Shown here piece by piece: positions 6,593 through 42,357 of a DNA stretch of 42,664 bases (its first letter is position 1; each line of letters opens with the position of its first letter). The translations under genes and the position numbers were made by a program. The notes under the pieces are model-generated. The model saw nothing but the letters and a program-made list of their open reading frames with translations. It was not told where the DNA came from and searched no databases. Source of the DNA: an uncultured Candidatus Saccharibacteria bacterium (GTDB lineage: Bacteria; Patescibacteriota; Saccharimonadia; Saccharimonadales; CAZARM01). Location of the stretch: positions 32,160 to 74,823 of the forward strand of contig CAZARM010000002.1 of NCBI GenBank assembly GCA_964487615.1, given 5' to 3'.

Positions 6593-7210
6593 TTAGTTGG
6601 TCTTTTGGGTTGTAGTAGCAGGAGTGGTGGTAGCGGGGGTAGTAGCGGCGGGGGTACTGCTGCTAGTAGCTGCTGCGGCACACTTCTGGCCGTTTGGATT
6701 GGCCTTCTTGAATTCGGCTATGAGCTTGCCCACCTGTCCATCATCTTTTATGTTTTCCCAGAAGATGACTTGCGCCTGTCGGATGACCATGCTGTCTTCA
6801 GGCCCGTGCGGCTCACAGCCTAGCTTAACTAGCTTAACCGATGAAGTTGTTGGCTTGTCGGCTTGATCTGGTTGAACTTGTTGGTTTGCGCGCAAGTAGT
6901 AGATGTCACTGACACGCATGAATTCTTTATTTATGTCATTGATATGTCCGAAATAAAGTTGCCCACCGTTTAGGAATACAGCTTGCATCTTGTCTTTATT
7001 AACATGCTTGCCTTCACTGGTAGGGGCGCCTAAGACTACTGACCATAGTAGTGCTACAACAAGTATTGTCGCAGAAAACAACAGTACGACTGAAGCAACC
7101 TTAAGCCCCATGCTAGCTGTCTTTTTTTTGCGACCACCGCTTGTAGGGGCAGGTGCGGCTGGCGAACTCGAAGATTGAGCAGGTCGGCTACCACGATCCA
7201 TGAATTCCAT
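6593..7210 (-). CDS. membrane-anchored exported protein with Thr/Pro/Ala-rich C-terminus, unknown function
   Basis: Basic N-terminus, one TM (VASVVLLFSATILVVALLWSVV), a globular part with two Cys, and an ATTPATTTPATTT tail. Confidence 0.55.
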   Translation of the reverse strand: MEFMDRGSRPAQSSSSPAAPAPTSGGRKKKTASMGLKVASVVLLFSATILVVALLWSVVLGAPTSEGKHVNKDKMQAVFLNGGQLYFGHINDINKEFMRVSDIYYLRANQQVQPDQADKPTTSSVKLVKLGCEPHGPEDSMVIRQAQVIFWENIKDDGQVGKLIAEFKKANPNGQKCAAAATSSSTPAATTPATTTPATTTQKTN

Positions 7211-7359
7211 TATGAATATCCACCTTTGTTTAGATTTGAGCTACTGGTAACAGTGTAATGCATAAGCATTGTGCCACGCAAGCCATTTTTATGCCTCTCA
7301 CCTCTGTAAGAAACAACAATAACACAACCATCAGGGGTGATACCCTGATAGCCCATCTA

Positions 7360-7389
7360 TTGACAACCTAAAACGTCCAAGAGTATGGT
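7360..7389 (+). promoter_or_regulatory. candidate sigma70-type promoter for the small gene at 7432
   Basis: TTGACA (7360-7365), an 18-nt spacer, then TATGGT (7384-7389). Confidence 0.35.
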
Positions 7390-7431
7390 AGGAAGTACCA
7401 AACTAATGTGAAGAGAGGGAGAGACATAAGC

Positions 7432-7629
7432 ATGGCTTACAAGCACACAAATTCTAAAGGGGTGACTTACTACCTAAACTCAAAGAACGTTACACTTCGC
7501 GGTGGCAAACAGCAAATGATTTACTACTTCAGCAAGGACGAGCGTCCTGAAGCTACTGATCTACCAGCTGGTTACTCTGTAAATGAGAACCCACGTAACG
7601 GTTTCTTGACCATCAAAAAAGGCGCCTAG
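7432..7629 (+). CDS. small basic protein (65 aa), unknown function
   Basis: GAGGGAGAG Shine-Dalgarno region upstream of the ATG at 7432, and a strong terminator downstream. Confidence 0.6.
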   Translation: MAYKHTNSKGVTYYLNSKNVTLRGGKQQMIYYFSKDERPEATDLPAGYSVNENPRNGFLTIKKGA

Positions 7630-7664
7630 ACAGCACCCTTTAGAAATTTCAAAGAAAAATTTGT

Positions 7665-7700
7665 AAGTGGCCGGATCTTAAATGTTTCGGCCACTTTTTT
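7665..7700 (+). terminator. intrinsic terminator
   Basis: AAGTGGCCG / CGGCCACTT stem followed by TTTTTT. Confidence 0.7.
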
Positions 7701-7711
7701 GATACACTGAG

Positions 7712-8473
7712 ATGCGGATGAGTAAAATCCTAAAAGTTGAGAATTTGGTCAAGAAATACGAGAAATTGACGGCCGTTAATGATATTAGCTTTGAAGTCGA
7801 AGCCGGTGAAATTTTTGGCATCCTTGGCCCTAACGGCGCCGGCAAAACGACGACCCTAGAGATGATCGAGGCCCTGCGTCCCATAGATGGTGGCAGTATC
7901 ACTGTGGATGGTCTGGATGTTGCCAGCCAACCGCAAAAGGTCAAGTCTATCATCGGCGTCCAGCCACAGAGCCCCGCCTTTCAAGACAAGACCAAGCTAA
8001 CCGAGCTAATCGACCTGTTTTCGGCAGCGTACGGCGAAAAAGTCCACGCTGGTAAGTTTTTGAAAGAAGTCCAGTTATCGGACAAGGCCAACAGCTACAT
8101 AGAAACCCTGTCAGGCGGCCAAAAGCAGCGCTTTAGTATTGCTGCGGCGCTGGTGCATAACCCCAAACTTTTCTTTCTGGACGAACCGACTACGGGATTG
8201 GACCCCCAGGCTCGTCGTAACCTCTGGCAGCTTATCCAAGAGATTCGCGACAAGGGCGTGACAGTAATCCTAACCACCCACTATATGGATGAGGCCGAGT
8301 TGCTCTGCGACCGGGTGGCTATTATGGACAAGGGCAAAATTATAGCCCTCGATACGCCCAAGAACTTAATCACTGCCTTACTCAAAAAAGGTTTCAAAAA
8401 AGCCCAGCATGTCGAGCAAGCCAACCTAGAAGACGTATTCATTGATTTAACGGGCAAGGATTTGAGGGAATAG
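7712..8473 (+). CDS. ABC transporter ATP-binding protein (ABC-2/DrrA-like)
   Basis: Walker A GPNGAGKTTT, signature LSGGQKQR, Walker B LFFLDEPTTGLD. Confidence 0.9.
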   Translation: MRMSKILKVENLVKKYEKLTAVNDISFEVEAGEIFGILGPNGAGKTTTLEMIEALRPIDGGSITVDGLDVASQPQKVKSIIGVQPQSPAFQDKTKLTELIDLFSAAYGEKVHAGKFLKEVQLSDKANSYIETLSGGQKQRFSIAAALVHNPKLFFLDEPTTGLDPQARRNLWQLIQEIRDKGVTVILTTHYMDEAELLCDRVAIMDKGKIIALDTPKNLITALLKKGFKKAQHVEQANLEDVFIDLTGKDLRE

Positions 8474-19854: not shown

Positions 19855-20008
19855 ACCTTATCCTCCTTATATTATTCTGGTGTGTTTGAGACCTACCACC
19901 GTCCGACCTCTAGACACTTCGTAATACAATAATTACATATAGATTACGTAAAGTAAATAATATGTTTTAGCATAAGCACCATGCATAGATACTGCTGAAG
20001 GCACTTTA

Positions 20009-20042: not shown

Positions 20043-20118
20043 GGGGGTGTAGCTCAGTGGTCAGAGCAGCGGGCTCATAACCTGTTGGTCGTAGGTTCAA
20101 TCCCTACCACCCCCACCA
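20043..20118 (+). tRNA. tRNA with CAT anticodon (elongator Met or lysidine-modified Ile2)
   Basis: 76-nt cloverleaf folded by hand: GGGGGTG / CACCCCC acceptor, GCTC/GAGC D-stem, anticodon loop CTCATAA, GTAGG TTCAATC CCTAC T-arm, encoded CCA. G1-C72 is paired, so it is not an initiator. Confidence 0.9.
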
Positions 20119-22902: not shown

Positions 22903-23355
22903 ATGCTCGGAAAAATAAAGAAGCCGGATTACCAAAAACACGTTGCTCAACTGCGAGATGTGCGCATGATTGGCTTGTTGGCGTTTGGCGTAGTCGTAAT
23001 TCTAGTAACCTGGAGTGCTATTACAGTTGTACAGACTAACTACGTTCTTCAGAAGCAAATCTCCAAACTAGAACAAGAAGTTGATTTGCACGCCCTAGAA
23101 AACAGCAATCTGAAACTTAAGAACCAATATTTTGATACCGACCAATATCTAGAACTTCAGGCCCGTCGTCAATTCGGCAAGGCAATGGACGGAGAGAAGA
23201 TGCTGATTGTACCCAAGAGTGTTGCTTTGGCTCACACGGTTGATTTAAAAGACCAGGTTGCCGATGCCGCGCATCCACCAGAAATCAAGAAGCCATTTTA
23301 TCAAGCCAACTTTGAAGCCTGGATGGACTTTCTATTCCGGCGCAAAGTCACCTGA
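22903..23355 (+). CDS. septum formation initiator family protein (FtsB/DivIC-like)
   Basis: Single TM followed by a leucine-zipper-like coiled coil (LQKQISKLEQEVDLHALENSNLKLKNQ) and the ...YLELQARRQFG motif. Confidence 0.6.
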   Translation: MLGKIKKPDYQKHVAQLRDVRMIGLLAFGVVVILVTWSAITVVQTNYVLQKQISKLEQEVDLHALENSNLKLKNQYFDTDQYLELQARRQFGKAMDGEKMLIVPKSVALAHTVDLKDQVADAAHPPEIKKPFYQANFEAWMDFLFRRKVT

Positions 23356-38698: not shown

Positions 38699-39346
38699 TC
38701 ATTTCCTTTTACCAATAACATCCATCTCACCGCCAAAACTATCCATGGCTTTTTGGAACAATTCATGACTGACTTTTCGATTTTCCAAAGCAGGCAATCC
38801 AGGATCGTGAAACCAAATGTTTTCGTCGTCAAAACCAGTAACAACCACCGAGTGACCAACGTAACCTTTCTTACTATTGAGGGTACTTTGATTTACGCAT
38901 ACTTTCGCCAAATACCCATTGCTGTAAGCGTCTTTGATATCTTGGATAGTCGGTTGCTCAGGGATGACCTCTATCCTTGCCAGGTACTCAGGTGTGAGCC
39001 GCATAGCTTCTTCGAAGTCTGAATTTTCTTCTTGCCACGAAGCAATCTCGTCTCCAAAAGCTTCTCGAATATACTCAACTCCTTTATTTTGGAAAGCAGT
39101 ATAATCAAAATTGCTGTAATGCTTAACCTCATAACCATGGTTTACAAACCAGAGAGACCACTGCATCTCCCAGGTGCCTTTTTCCGGCTGCTTATCTGTA
39201 ATTTGTTCCATATCTGTGAGTGAATATCTTTTGTTTGGCTCAAAGAATCCTAGTATCATTTGTAGGCTATTCTCAACACAATGTATTCCTTCAGGATGTT
39301 CTGGAGTGGGACTACTGGAGTAAAAAGGAATCTTCAAATTCATCAC
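38699..39346 (-). CDS. papain-fold (C39-like) cysteine peptidase domain protein
   Basis: Candidate nucleophile context GIHCVENSLQMILGF and His context GHSVVVTGFDDENIWFHDPG. Inference from motif spacing. Confidence 0.5.
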   Translation of the reverse strand: MMNLKIPFYSSSPTPEHPEGIHCVENSLQMILGFFEPNKRYSLTDMEQITDKQPEKGTWEMQWSLWFVNHGYEVKHYSNFDYTAFQNKGVEYIREAFGDEIASWQEENSDFEEAMRLTPEYLARIEVIPEQPTIQDIKDAYSNGYLAKVCVNQSTLNSKKGYVGHSVVVTGFDDENIWFHDPGLPALENRKVSHELFQKAMDSFGGEMDVIGKRK

Positions 39347-40234: not shown

Positions 40235-40852
40235 TCAATTGTTAAGTGTTGTTATTGAACCATTTGGGTTTTTAGTCCATGACTCGGTATTCGGGTCAGT
40301 GGAACACTCCATCGCAAACTCCTCGTAGATAAGACCACCATTCTTGCTTTTGCACACAGGTCCATTAAGTGTTTCTTCGTCCCATGTTCCTTTTGGTGTC
40401 AAAACCCAGATTATTGGTGCTCCCCCAGCATGCCCCTCACCATTCTTATCAACTGGAGCCTGACCACCAGCAATATTTACCTGACTTATTTTGCTAATGT
40501 TGTATTGAGCAATGGTATCCACATCATCAATGTCATTATGAGAAAACTTGTTCTTGCTAAGGACATCAAGCATATATGCCTTGAAACTTGCGGGTGTATA
40601 GTCCGGCAACTTACTGATATCAGCTTCTGTCTGCATTGTTATATCAACTTCATGAATCGTTGTGTCTATTTTCGTATTTCCTGCTGGCGTCGATGATTCT
40701 GTGGAAGCTGGACTGTTGCTCTCAGTCGAGCCTCCATTCCGATTGTTGTACACATAGTAGCCAACGCCTCCAATGATGCCAATAGCTACCAGAATCACCA
40801 ATATCCCAACTACACCAAACCCTTTGTTACCAAGCTTTTTCATACTATCCAT
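40235..40852 (-). CDS. membrane-anchored exported protein, unknown function
   Basis: Internal ATG at 40852 or 40843. MKKLGNKGFGVVGILVILVAIGIIGG anchor, S/T-rich linker, and a globular domain with two Cys. Confidence 0.55.
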   Translation of the reverse strand: MDSMKKLGNKGFGVVGILVILVAIGIIGGVGYYVYNNRNGGSTESNSPASTESSTPAGNTKIDTTIHEVDITMQTEADISKLPDYTPASFKAYMLDVLSKNKFSHNDIDDVDTIAQYNISKISQVNIAGGQAPVDKNGEGHAGGAPIIWVLTPKGTWDEETLNGPVCKSKNGGLIYEEFAMECSTDPNTESWTKNPNGSITTLNN

Positions 40853-40895
40853 ATATTTGGTTGGCCTAATCATAATACTTAGCTTATAAGTGTAC

Positions 40896-40942
40896 AATAA
40901 AAAGACCTCCATTTCTGGAAGGCATAATGCTTATGCTTGGTA
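40896..40942 (-). repeat. distal copy of the tRNA-trailer direct repeat (includes a terminator-like hairpin)
   Basis: 40923-40942 (CATAATGCTTATGCTTGGTA) is identical to 42268-42287. The flank 40896-40922 is an imperfect match with a hairpin plus A-run (U-run on the minus strand). Confidence 0.8.
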
Positions 40943-40997
40943 ACCCAAGTACGTTCAAATTGGAACGACCTGAGGGCAGAATTAGGTAGATGGAAAC

Positions 40998-41717
40998 CTA
41001 TGTGTGAGTGGGTCCGGGCCTTACTTCAACAAAGTTTCCCAGCATGAAATCCATGATTAAGTCATGGGCTCGATAGGCTATCGGTAACTGCAATTTTGTA
41101 TACCATTCGGCTTTATCCTCACCGTTTGGAGTTTCAAATTGTACAGTTTGTAAAATATCGGCATCATTTTCTTCGTAAGCTTGGCGAAGGGTTGGCACAT
41201 CGTAATACTGTACGCAAGTTAAATTTGGATTGGCACTTAGGAGCAATGTTTCGGGTATGTATATATGCTCAGTTCCCTCTAGCGCCGGCAGGCATCGTCT
41301 GTAGCAAGGCAACAAAGTTGGTGCCTTCAGTTGTGTAGTGTCATCTGGTTGGACATCGGCAACAACCGCTATGGCGCTAAGGGGTTCACGTGCCAAACTA
41401 ACTGTTGCTTGTAAAACCATTTCTTCGGCATGAATATCAATTGGCCCATTTTGTGCAGGTTTGATATTAACGCCATGTAAAAGACTTACCGCATTATCAT
41501 CATCCAAAAACGTGACCCCACAAGCTGCTACTCGAAAATCCCGCCAAGATTCAGCAAACTGGAGAGAGCGTTGAGCCCTAATAAGCGCTACAACTGCATC
41601 CCCTGTCTGTCTAAGAATAGGATGGGATTGTTCTGCTCCACGAAAAACATGCATCTGCACAACAGGCTCATCAACAACACCACTTACATCGAATAAATTT
41701 TCAGCGTTTGCAATCAA
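40998..41717 (-). CDS. divergent cytidine/deoxycytidylate-deaminase-fold protein
   Basis: FRVAACG...HGVNIKP....IDIHAEEMVL...AIAVVAD...LLPCYRRC aligns with the CDA layout (F.VGAA, G.N.E, [CH]AE, PCxxC). A ~90-aa C-terminal extension follows. Confidence 0.6.
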   Translation of the reverse strand: MIANAENLFDVSGVVDEPVVQMHVFRGAEQSHPILRQTGDAVVALIRAQRSLQFAESWRDFRVAACGVTFLDDDNAVSLLHGVNIKPAQNGPIDIHAEEMVLQATVSLAREPLSAIAVVADVQPDDTTQLKAPTLLPCYRRCLPALEGTEHIYIPETLLLSANPNLTCVQYYDVPTLRQAYEENDADILQTVQFETPNGEDKAEWYTKLQLPIAYRAHDLIMDFMLGNFVEVRPGPTHT

Positions 41718-41737
41718 ACTACTATCCTTGATAAATC

Positions 41738-42184
41738 TTACGCAGCGTCTCTGGCTATTTCTTGACGAGCTTTTTCAACGCCGCCTGCTATTCCCAAAAG
41801 TTGCTGCATACCGGGATGATGAGTATCAATCCAATCTGTCGCTTCATCTTCATTGCTAAACTCTAAAAGACTCGTAAGTAGTCGCTCAGCACGTTCGTCG
41901 GCTATTGTCTCAGCTACACCTAGTAAGACAACGGCTTCCTCTGCCTTATCACTTACATGAAGGTCATGGACATGCGCACCAGCTTCGAAGTAAGATATTG
42001 ACCTTGCCTGGTCAAATCGAGTTGTAGGGCTGCCATCGATAAGACCACTACCGATAAAGGGAGCAGCTTCTACTCGAGCCTGTATTTGGCCGATAAGTAA
42101 TTCGGCTTCCATTTCTCTATGTGCTCGCTCAAAAGTAATTTCCTCAATGGGAGTGTCTCGTGTAATAAGTTCGTATATGTACAT
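41738..42184 (-). CDS. acidic hypothetical protein (148 aa), first gene of the cassette
   Basis: ORF track. AAAGGAAA Shine-Dalgarno-like sequence. Lies 20 nt upstream of the deaminase-like gene. Confidence 0.5.
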   Translation of the reverse strand: MYIYELITRDTPIEEITFERAHREMEAELLIGQIQARVEAAPFIGSGLIDGSPTTRFDQARSISYFEAGAHVHDLHVSDKAEEAVVLLGVAETIADERAERLLTSLLEFSNEDEATDWIDTHHPGMQQLLGIAGGVEKARQEIARDAA

Positions 42185-42239: not shown

Positions 42240-42287
42240 AATAAAAATGACTCCAGTATCCTGAAGTCATAATGCTTATGCTTGGTA
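42240..42287 (-). repeat. proximal copy of the direct repeat, comprising the tRNA 3' end, trailer and intrinsic terminator
   Basis: ATGACTCCAG tatc CTGAAGTCAT hairpin (one mismatch) with AAAAATAAAA on the plus strand (U-run on the minus strand). Overlaps the tRNA by 5 nt (TGGTA). Confidence 0.8.
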
Positions 42288-42357
42288 GCGGGGGCCGGAC
42301 TCGAACCGGCGACCTTGTGGTTATGAGCCACACGAGCTGCCACTGCTCTACCCCGCG
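42283..42357 (-). tRNA. initiator-type tRNA-fMet (CAT)
   Basis: The reverse complement CGCGGGGTAGAGCAGTGGCAGCTCGTGTGGCTCATAACCACAAGGTCGCCGGTTCGAGTCCGGCCCCCGCTACCA closely resembles E. coli tRNA-fMet. It has an unpaired 1:72 position (C1/U72), A11:U24 and an encoded CCA. Confidence 0.9.

Follow-up and report, generated by a model that had tools for sequence, protein, structure and literature searches.

The stretch of DNA analyzed here (hereafter the window) comprises 42,664 nt of contig CAZARM010000002.1 from an uncultured Candidatus Saccharibacteria bacterium, and its element of interest is a pair of ORFs on the minus strand, next to a tRNA-Met gene (Table 1). The downstream ORF encodes a 239 amino acid protein with a deaminase fold (hereafter the deaminase), and the upstream ORF encodes a 148 amino acid acidic protein (hereafter the partner). 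Our analysis shows that the 239 amino acid protein is unusual but genuinely related to ordinary cytidine deaminases (CDA), and that the two genes form a 1.3-kb cassette at a tRNA-Met-linked hot spot.

The partner and deaminase ORFs are separated by 20 nt, and each is preceded at 7-8 nt by an AAGGA ribosome-binding site. A terminator scan placed terminators on both sides of the pair and none between the two genes, which are probably co-transcribed. The annotated frame ranked best of the six for both ORFs, and a codon model trained on 24 other window genes (score range = 0.07-0.26) assigned 0.168 to the partner and 0.076 to the deaminase. The GC content at third codon positions (GC3) is 0.32-0.34 in the two ORFs and 0.34-0.60 (mean 0.50) in the 24 reference genes. 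A 1004-bp contig from a separate sequencing run is 99.9% identical to window positions 42300-41297 and holds the partner ORF together with deaminase codons 1-140. The partner ORF, for its part, probably encodes a protein.

Both ORFs and all the motifs listed in an initial annotation of this DNA, which was made from the sequence alone, are present in the minus-strand translation. These are FRVAACG (residues 61-67), HGVNIKP (81-87), H96-A97-E98, P137-C138, and C142, and this numbering agrees with the 38-residue spacer proposed between E98 and P137. Other parts of that description needed adjustment. The C-x3-C spacing is real (C138/C142), but the protein family mostly carries C-x2-C, with C-x3-C restricted to a subgroup of 15 out of 89 sequences. 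Likewise, a tail of ~90 residues had been described and 97 residues do follow C142, but ~30 of these still belong to the core, leaving a true C-terminal extension of ~65 amino acids. The AlphaFold model also revealed an extension of ~30 amino acids before helix 1 (residues 33-54) that had not been part of the description. Finally, the partner does lie 20 nt upstream and is acidic (pI = 4.53), but its acidity is not distinctive, as the deaminase itself has a pI of 4.61 (neighboring ORFs, 4.9-5.9).

To place the deaminase in a family, we combined profile searches with structure prediction. The window protein alone matched the Pfam family PF00383 (dCMP_cyt_deam_1) with 18.2 bits (E = 0.0024), below the 25-bit gathering threshold. 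A word-seeded homologue search with the single protein returned only the query itself, the same kind of search with the family alignment returned essentially the queries alone, and a PDB sequence search with the single protein gave no match. When 1.84 billion cluster representatives were scanned in full with HMMER, 107 relatives were identified at E ≤ 1e-3, mostly of 180-300 amino acids, and the family alignment comprises 89 sequences, 70 of which match PF00383 at E ≤ 0.01 (best E = 2.6e-10). Compared with the PDB, the family profile matched tetrameric cytidine deaminases (3dmo, E = 5.5e-9; human 1mq0, E = 2.4e-8; mouse 1zab, E = 1.4e-7) in an alignment that spans helix 1 through the PCxxC helix and pairs F61, N84, HAE, and PC..C with human F36, N54, CAE, and PCGAC. 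AlphaFold2 supplied with the family alignment produced a confident model (pLDDT = 90.1, pTM = 0.87; single-sequence run, pLDDT = 32.5). In a Foldseek comparison of this model, a check suggested in the initial annotation, every one of the best 50 PDB matches was a tetrameric cytidine deaminase or a blasticidin-S deaminase (target TM-scores of up to 0.80), and cytidine deaminase structures matched at a probability of 1.0. No DddA/SsdA-type toxin and no TadA/APOBEC-type enzyme was present among these 50 matches. The deaminase fold and zinc ligands that had been read from the sequence are thus upheld by the family alignment, the profile, and the model, with the His and two Cys ligands and the catalytic Glu all intact.

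The division of deaminases with a C-terminal hairpin has been described, as has the strand-4/5 hairpin without helix 4 in its CDD/CDA clade (Iyer et al., 2011; PMC3239186). In our model, a 5-residue turn rather than a helix connects strands 158-162 and 168-172 into an antiparallel hairpin (pLDDT >95 in this region), and because they pair without an intervening helix we assigned the protein to the C-terminal hairpin division. The synapomorphies listed for the CDD/CDA clade are a C[H]AE motif in helix 2, a PCxxCR motif in helix 3, and a Glu that ends strand 5 (Iyer et al., 2011, Table 1; PMC3239186). Examination of the window protein for these features and for the nucleoside pocket showed: (i) the C[H]AE motif, as H96-A97-E98, with each residue conserved in at least 90% of the 89 sequences; (ii) the strand-4/5 hairpin without helix 4, as modeled; (iii) PCYRRCLP in place of PCxxCR, that is, C-x3-C with a Leu replacing the Arg; (iv) Q170 at the position of the Glu that ends strand 5; and (v) from the pocket signature of a Phe and Asn-x-Glu, F61 and N84 retained, with Lys86 at the Glu position. 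The family branched from the tetrameric CDD/CDA clade and is nearly confined to Saccharibacteria. Its fold and chemistry are already known; what sets this variant apart is its altered sugar pocket and its narrow lineage range, and it is poorly annotated. Our literature search found no described cytidine deaminase family of Saccharibacteria or Patescibacteria.

Across the 89-sequence alignment C138 and C142 are invariant, and at least 90% of the sequences keep S57, R59, V63, G82, N84, K86, H96, A97, E98, T134, L135, and P137. The predicted zinc ligands are H96, C138, and C142, the predicted catalytic residue is E98, and F61, N84, and K86 are predicted at nucleoside-binding positions. Such conservation of the catalytic residues points to purifying selection on catalysis. 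The main clade (74 members) mostly carries TLHPCGxCR, with an Arg at position 143 in 62 members, a Glu at position 170 also in 62, and a Gln directly after the Glu of HAE (HAEQ) in 37. All 15 sequences of the other subgroup, which includes the window protein, have C-x3-C. For APOBEC enzymes, the zinc motif is commonly given as PC-x(2-4)-C, and this spacing thus has precedent in the superfamily. The subgroup shows further correlated changes, namely H136 to Leu, Val, or Met, one extra residue between the Cys, R143 to Leu, Thr, or Ile, Pro144, E170 to Gln (in 7 of the 15), and H181 to Tyr. Because Arg143 and Glu170 are lost together in this subgroup, it is plausible that the two residues interact. 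The C-x3-C subgroup therefore appears to have rebuilt its second shell while the catalytic residues stayed in place, and judged by these positions it departs further than the rest of the family from the parent CDD/CDA clade.

To determine where the family occurs, genome contigs were searched with the window protein alone, which gave no match, and with the main-clade alignment. Of the 11 named genomic loci recovered, 10 belong to Candidatus Saccharibacteria metagenome-assembled genomes (MAGs). The sole match outside Saccharibacteria (L019, 3821-4471 of OZ246405.1, labeled as a Gammaproteobacteria MAG) shows 29% identity over residues 62-185, and could reflect a horizontally transferred gene, an error in contig binning, or a branch that lies further away. 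The closest relative of the window deaminase, with 51% identity, is a "hypothetical protein" of a Patescibacteria MAG, and one family member has been named "cytidine deaminase" by IMG. Family members are stand-alone genes in housekeeping neighborhoods. In five loci RarA adjoins the family gene, and SPFH, BipA, and trehalase genes lie close by; in the C-x3-C subgroup, five loci have a malic enzyme gene no more than one gene away; and other neighbors include TruB/S15/PNPase, MurC with an ABC transporter, TGT, and thymidylate kinase (Tmk). In the loci beside RarA (L009, L011, L012, L014, and L017), the family orthologues share 41-51% identity, compared with 76-86% for RarA and 66-83% for SPFH. 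Since the syntenic orthologues are this divergent relative to RarA while the catalytic residues are near-invariant, the family evolves fast outside its catalytic core, which could be caused by relaxed constraint or by positive selection. Phages, plasmids, and viral contigs yielded no family member or close relative of the deaminase, a search of BFVD with the deaminase returned generic dCMP-type deaminases only, and PADLOC-DB gave no deaminase match at E ≤ 1.

One related locus (L005) carries a family member (P0007) in a slot whose flanking proteins are 43-77% identical to those of the window. The corresponding slot of the window (Table 1) holds no deaminase remnant, as a tblastn search of positions 7210-7712 with the 89 family members gave nothing at E < 0.4. 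The only ORF there, of 65 amino acids (MAYKHTNSKGVTYYLNSK...; window 7433-7629, plus strand), is conserved at positions 4715-4912 of L005, directly upstream of the L005 deaminase gene.

We then analyzed the partner. Among 5.8 billion proteins its only homologue was itself, and it matched no entry of Pfam, NCBIfam, or PHROG, including no immunity family, and nothing in phages or viral contigs. Its best match in PADLOC was at chance level (E = 0.043). Partner residues 80-133 bear a weak, co-linear resemblance (E = 0.58) to the beta subunit of a class I ribonucleotide reductase (6qo5, residues 81-133), which was rejected as probably due to chance, as the partner does not keep the metal-ligand positions and Pfam lends no support. 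No partner-related ORF was present in the 30 loci fetched, which include ~19 distinct family neighborhoods, except in L001, a near-identical copy of the window, and no small upstream gene of any kind recurs across those ~19 neighborhoods. The pairing with the deaminase was seen only in the window and in the 99.9% identical contig of ~1 kb. As the partner has no homologue elsewhere, its link to the deaminase is one of arrangement (strand, 20-nt gap, and outer terminators), and the partner is most simply regarded as an orphan, a hitch-hiking cassette gene rather than a cognate antitoxin or immunity protein.

The initial annotation had also described the context of the pair as insertion-like, and this impression proved to be correct, given a 44-nt direct repeat around the pair and a cassette-end element common to related contigs. 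The two copies of the direct repeat (42244-42287 and 40899-40942) bracket the two genes; their last 20 nt, which contain the TACCA of the tRNA, match exactly, and this 20-nt repeat is found in 2 copies versus 0.02 expected. A nhmmer model built only from the six long copies of a repeat of contig L020 (described below) matched the window immediately after the deaminase stop codon (40993..40901, E = 7.9e-8). The tRNA-Met trailer AAGCATAAGCATTATG has four matches in the window (7258-7273, 19968-19983, 40923-40938, and 42268-42283; 0.6 expected). Two of these are near-copies with 2-3 mismatches, one located ~60 nt upstream of the other tRNA-Met gene and one in the intergenic slot that holds the deaminase in L005.

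A metagenome scan for the tRNA end and trailer identified seven related contigs, with tRNA-Met copies that are 86-95% identical. In L025 (4057-4317) and L026 (2387-2660), and likewise in L022 and L023, an intact tRNA-Met is followed by unrelated inserts of ~150-175 bp that differ from contig to contig, each ending in a hairpin beside the tRNA. After those inserts comes a ~25-nt copy of the tRNA 3' end, joined to the AAGCATAAGCATT trailer; in L025 and L026 a terminator and then different genes follow. These copies of the tRNA 3' end look like an att-type target duplication. In L020 (1-8300), nearly all genes are followed by a repeat of ~136 nt, which is present in six long copies plus additional partial ones. 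The repeat measures ~65-136 nt, has the core GTTCCAATTCGAATGTACnnGGGCTACCA, and is usually followed by a terminator hairpin; the model trained on L020 also matched just downstream of cargo genes in L025, L026, and L021. The common order is therefore tRNA-Met, trailer and terminator, one or more cargo genes, the repeat ending in ...GGGYTACCA, and a terminator. The cargo consists of the partner and deaminase in the window, an alpha/beta hydrolase in L025, a 228 amino acid protein and then an APH-family kinase in L026, and an SDR protein, a P-loop kinase, and surface/membrane proteins in L020, with GLUG and Fib_succ_major proteins also among the cargo of the relatives. The cargo of the relatives thus comprises accessory enzymes and surface proteins, and the repeat gives a cassette-array-like organization in which the cargo differs from genome to genome. 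For the genomic context we also considered an integron gene cassette, whose hallmarks would be an attC site with a conserved imperfect hairpin and an intI integrase gene beside it. The repeat had no match in Rfam and no viral copy; RNAalifold gave neither a consensus fold nor covariation, and a minihelix drawn by hand was weakly supported. No recombinase was found in L020 or among the subset of window ORFs that was scanned, and the contig continues past the window.

Table 1. Positions of the gene pair, the elements that bound its cassette, and related features (window coordinates unless a contig is named).
Feature	Position	Strand	Remarks
Deaminase ORF (P0001), 239 aa	41717..40998	minus	TTG start; ORF list
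Partner ORF (P0002), 148 aa	42184..41738	minus	ATG start; ORF list
tRNA-Met (CAT)	42283..42357	minus	ARAGORN; cassette directly downstream of 3' end
tRNA 3' end (TACCA) + trailer AAGCATAAGCATTATG + intrinsic terminator (42270..42247)	42244..42287	minus	Proximal copy of the 44-nt direct repeat
Cassette-end repeat (...CGTTCCAATTTGAACGTACTTGGGTTACCA)	40901..40993	minus	nhmmer; alignment to other copies; then distal trailer copy + terminator (40923..40905)
Syntenic slot	7211..7711	plus	Only the conserved 65-aa ORF; flank synteny with L005
Repeat copies in L020	14-156, 971-1129, 1724-1881, 2419-2483, 3004-3159, 3931-4084, 5859-6010, 7107-7162, 8129-8208		
Repeat copies elsewhere	L026 536-563, 1565-1625, 6367-6433; L025 3168-3232; L021 2875-2937		

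The neighbors of the cassette in the window encode HAD, ABC-2, SDR, Crp, PNPOx, EamA, and C39-like peptidase proteins, and are not defense genes. The ORF just beyond the cassette (40235-40912, minus strand) has a listed start that overlaps the terminator and repeat at 40905-40923; its true start is probably an internal Met at ~40843 (MKKLGNKGFGVVGILVILVAIG...), with a product that is probably membrane-anchored and has a Ser/Thr-rich linker. Downstream of it lie small ORFs with no family and the C39-like peptidase gene (38699-39346). The two tRNA-Met genes of the window (20043-20118, plus; 42283-42357, minus) are oppositely oriented and 22 kb apart. Their counterparts in L021 (487-562 and 1787-1861) share one orientation and are separated by 1.3 kb, with only a DivIC-like gene (window 22903-23355) between them. 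This difference implies that an inversion or large insertions occurred in the window lineage. The GC content of the window is ~0.48-0.50 and drops to 0.41-0.45 beyond ~27 kb.

Saccharibacteria are ultra-small epibionts that depend on salvaged nucleotides. We favor the reading (with a probability of about 0.6) that the window protein descends from the CDD/CDA clade and is an active zinc deaminase, which would act on a free pyrimidine nucleoside or nucleotide with a probably shifted preference, and which is carried by the cassette with the orphan ORF as a passenger. According to this reading, H96, C138, and C142 would hold the zinc and E98 would activate the zinc-bound water, F61 and N84 would keep the base-stacking and sugar-contacting positions, and K86 would take the place of the ribose-binding Glu, so that a pyrimidine nucleoside or nucleotide may be deaminated as part of salvage. 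K86, the additional elements at both termini, and the second shell, which is altered in the C-x3-C subgroup, suggest that the preference has moved off plain cytidine, possibly to a phosphorylated or otherwise anionic substrate. The gene, missing from the chromosomal slot of its syntenic relative, would instead travel with the orphan ORF in the tRNA-Met cassette. A plain salvage role, which the initial annotation had kept as a fallback, has become the better-supported reading, with an active site that differs from the canonical one.

Several observations weigh against this reading. The ribose-binding Glu (human E56) is a Lys in 86 of the 89 family members (Lys86 here), the intersubunit active-site Tyr of tetrameric cytidine deaminases is not conserved in the family, and of the three CDD/CDA synapomorphies, two are missing from the window protein (the PCxxCR Arg and the strand-5 Glu). 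The fast evolution of the family is unusual for a salvage enzyme and would fit a conflict-related role too, and a functional pair would also be consistent with the tight two-gene layout, with its 20-nt gap and the terminators that flank both genes together. It should also be noted that our view of the host genome is the window itself, and a canonical cdd gene or a second family member could lie beyond it.

The initial annotation had put forward a toxin-antitoxin, toxin-immunity, or anti-phage module, in which the acidic protein encoded upstream would neutralize a deaminase directed against nucleic acids or the nucleotide pool. The layout recalls a type II toxin-antitoxin (TA) system, with a small acidic ORF first, a 20-nt gap, and no terminator between the genes; the pair sits in a mobile-looking cassette beside a tRNA gene; the deaminase family evolves fast; and immunity proteins are often orphans. 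Nevertheless, ~19 other family contexts lack a partner, which indicates that the homologues are tolerated alone, and neither protein matches PADLOC above chance or any toxin-deaminase or immunity family of Pfam. The nearest structures are salvage cytidine deaminases and not DddA or SsdA, the cargo of related cassettes is metabolic or surface-related, and the window neighbors are not defense genes either. Polymorphic toxins are C-terminal domains of secreted proteins with a recurring cognate immunity gene, whereas the deaminase is a stand-alone protein of 239 amino acids with no trafficking domain, whose relatives match only PF00383 and, weakly, PF14421 in Pfam, and apart from the near-identical L001 the partner is absent from all other loci fetched. 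A type II TA system would show a conserved bicistronic pairing and an antitoxin in which a DNA-binding or neutralizing domain can be recognized, and no domain was found in the partner; a defense deaminase would match PADLOC-DB (for example, dCTP deaminase systems) or lie in a defense island, and we found neither. Nothing beyond gene order and mobility speaks for such a module, which must also account for the partnerless relatives, and we consider it improbable. The same holds for its most far-reaching form, which we regard as a long shot: a cognate unit of neutralizer and deaminase moving in an undescribed tRNA-Met cassette system of Saccharibacteria, whose cargo units would each close with the repeat that mimics the tRNA 3' end plus its trailer, and in which the Lys switch and the fast evolution would mark a move to polynucleotide or nucleotide targets in phage or host-bacterium conflict.

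The Lys in place of the ribose-binding Glu, the conserved Arg59 (in at least 90% of the 89 sequences), and the ~100 extra residues around the catalytic core could alternatively serve a housekeeping polynucleotide editor (for example, C-to-U in tRNA or rRNA), with the extensions and K86/R59 gripping the RNA backbone. Some family loci lie near RNA-modification genes (TGT in L015, TruB in L006, and Dus with Sua5 in L005), but no single one of these genes is constantly linked to the family, and small genomes of the Candidate Phyla Radiation (CPR) contain many of them in any case. Editing functions have been suggested for derived CDD/CDA branches (PMC3239186), but the family members have no RNA-binding domain recognizable by Pfam, a pI of 4.6 is unusual in an RNA-binding enzyme, and a relocatable cassette copy suits an accessory function better than an essential editing enzyme, making this role unlikely. 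The blasticidin-S deaminases among the structural matches (E from 3e-4) raise another option, namely that the cassette carries the deaminase as accessory or resistance cargo and that its substrate is a cytosine nucleoside of a modified or antibiotic kind. The pocket Lys could pair with a carboxylate-bearing substrate, and the cassettes of relatives carry an APH-family kinase and hydrolases. Yet cytidine deaminases outmatch blasticidin-S deaminases by both sequence and structure, and the widespread occurrence of the family in Saccharibacteria at conserved chromosomal positions argues for a core rather than a resistance function; such a substrate therefore seems doubtful at best. Finally, the cassette copy might be a decaying, non-functional duplicate, given the loss of the Arg after the second Cys and of the Glu after strand 5, a coding-frame score (0.076) at the low end of the window genes, and a C-terminal tail that is longer than in its closest relatives and abuts the repeat. 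We judge this very unlikely, because the zinc ligands and catalytic Glu are all intact, the substitutions are common to 15 diverged subgroup members (37-51% identity) and thus represent a selected state, and the ORF is full-length, has a ribosome-binding site, and yields a model that is confident throughout the core.

If our favored reading of a salvage-type deaminase holds, a lineage-wide CDA-like enzyme with a Lys-for-Glu pocket, a His ligand, and extra elements may show how Saccharibacteria process scavenged pyrimidines. The compact and confidently modeled scaffold may also interest groups mining deaminases for base editing. For annotation, the locus is a caution that a deaminase and a small acidic ORF near a tRNA gene are insufficient to call a toxin/immunity pair. 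The tRNA-Met cassette repeat, which mimics the tRNA 3' end, hints at an uncharacterized gene-exchange route in the CPR and may be the more original lead.

Among known systems, the tetrameric cytidine deaminases (B. subtilis Cdd 1jtk/1ux1, human CDA 1mq0, and B. pseudomallei 3dmo) are the best profile and structural matches to the family. They share with it the order of core elements, the strand-4/5 hairpin, the pocket Phe and Asn, xAE, and PC...C; the main clade also keeps their PCGxCR and the Glu after strand 5, whereas the window subgroup lacks both. The window protein differs from them in its length (239 versus ~135 amino acids), with ~30 amino acids added before helix 1, an insertion of ~8 residues before PC, and a C-terminal extension of ~65 amino acids that forms a helix, a strand, and a long helix. 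In addition, the first zinc ligand is His rather than Cys, and in the subgroup C-x3-C is followed by x-Pro. The dimeric E. coli-type cytidine deaminase (1af2/1ctt) resembles the window protein in its HAE with a His zinc ligand and in a size above the minimal domain, but its sequence match to the family is marginal (E = 0.75), and in place of its second, pseudo-catalytic domain our model has the helix, strand, and long helix. The HAEQ found in half of the main-clade members presumably resembles the His/Gln zinc environment of the E. coli-type enzyme, which is mimicked by the C53H/R56Q mutant of the B. subtilis enzyme (1ux1).

The toxin deaminases (DddA-DddI and SsdA-SsdI; the SCP1.201, BURPS668_1122, YwqJ, and MafB19 clades) share with the window locus a small neighboring protein, but they gave no sequence or structural match among the best hits of the family. 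In those systems the toxin forms the C-terminal domain of a large secreted protein, and a conserved immunity gene lies downstream, whereas here the deaminase stands alone and the small ORF lies upstream and is not conserved. The LmjF36.5940-like branch (PF14421) is another derived CDD/CDA branch, matched weakly by 5 of the 89 family members (best E = 0.0027); it differs in that the window protein itself gives no match, in that the fused Rossmann or CCCH domains are absent here, and in its phyletic range (PMC3239186). Blasticidin-S deaminase (2z3g, 1wn6) is a weaker match than the cytidine deaminases, has no sequence-profile match to the family, and differs in size and phyletic range. It nevertheless has the same CDD/CDA-derived fold (E from 3e-4, target TM ~0.65), and it shows that the CDD/CDA clade can be recruited for non-canonical cytosine nucleosides.

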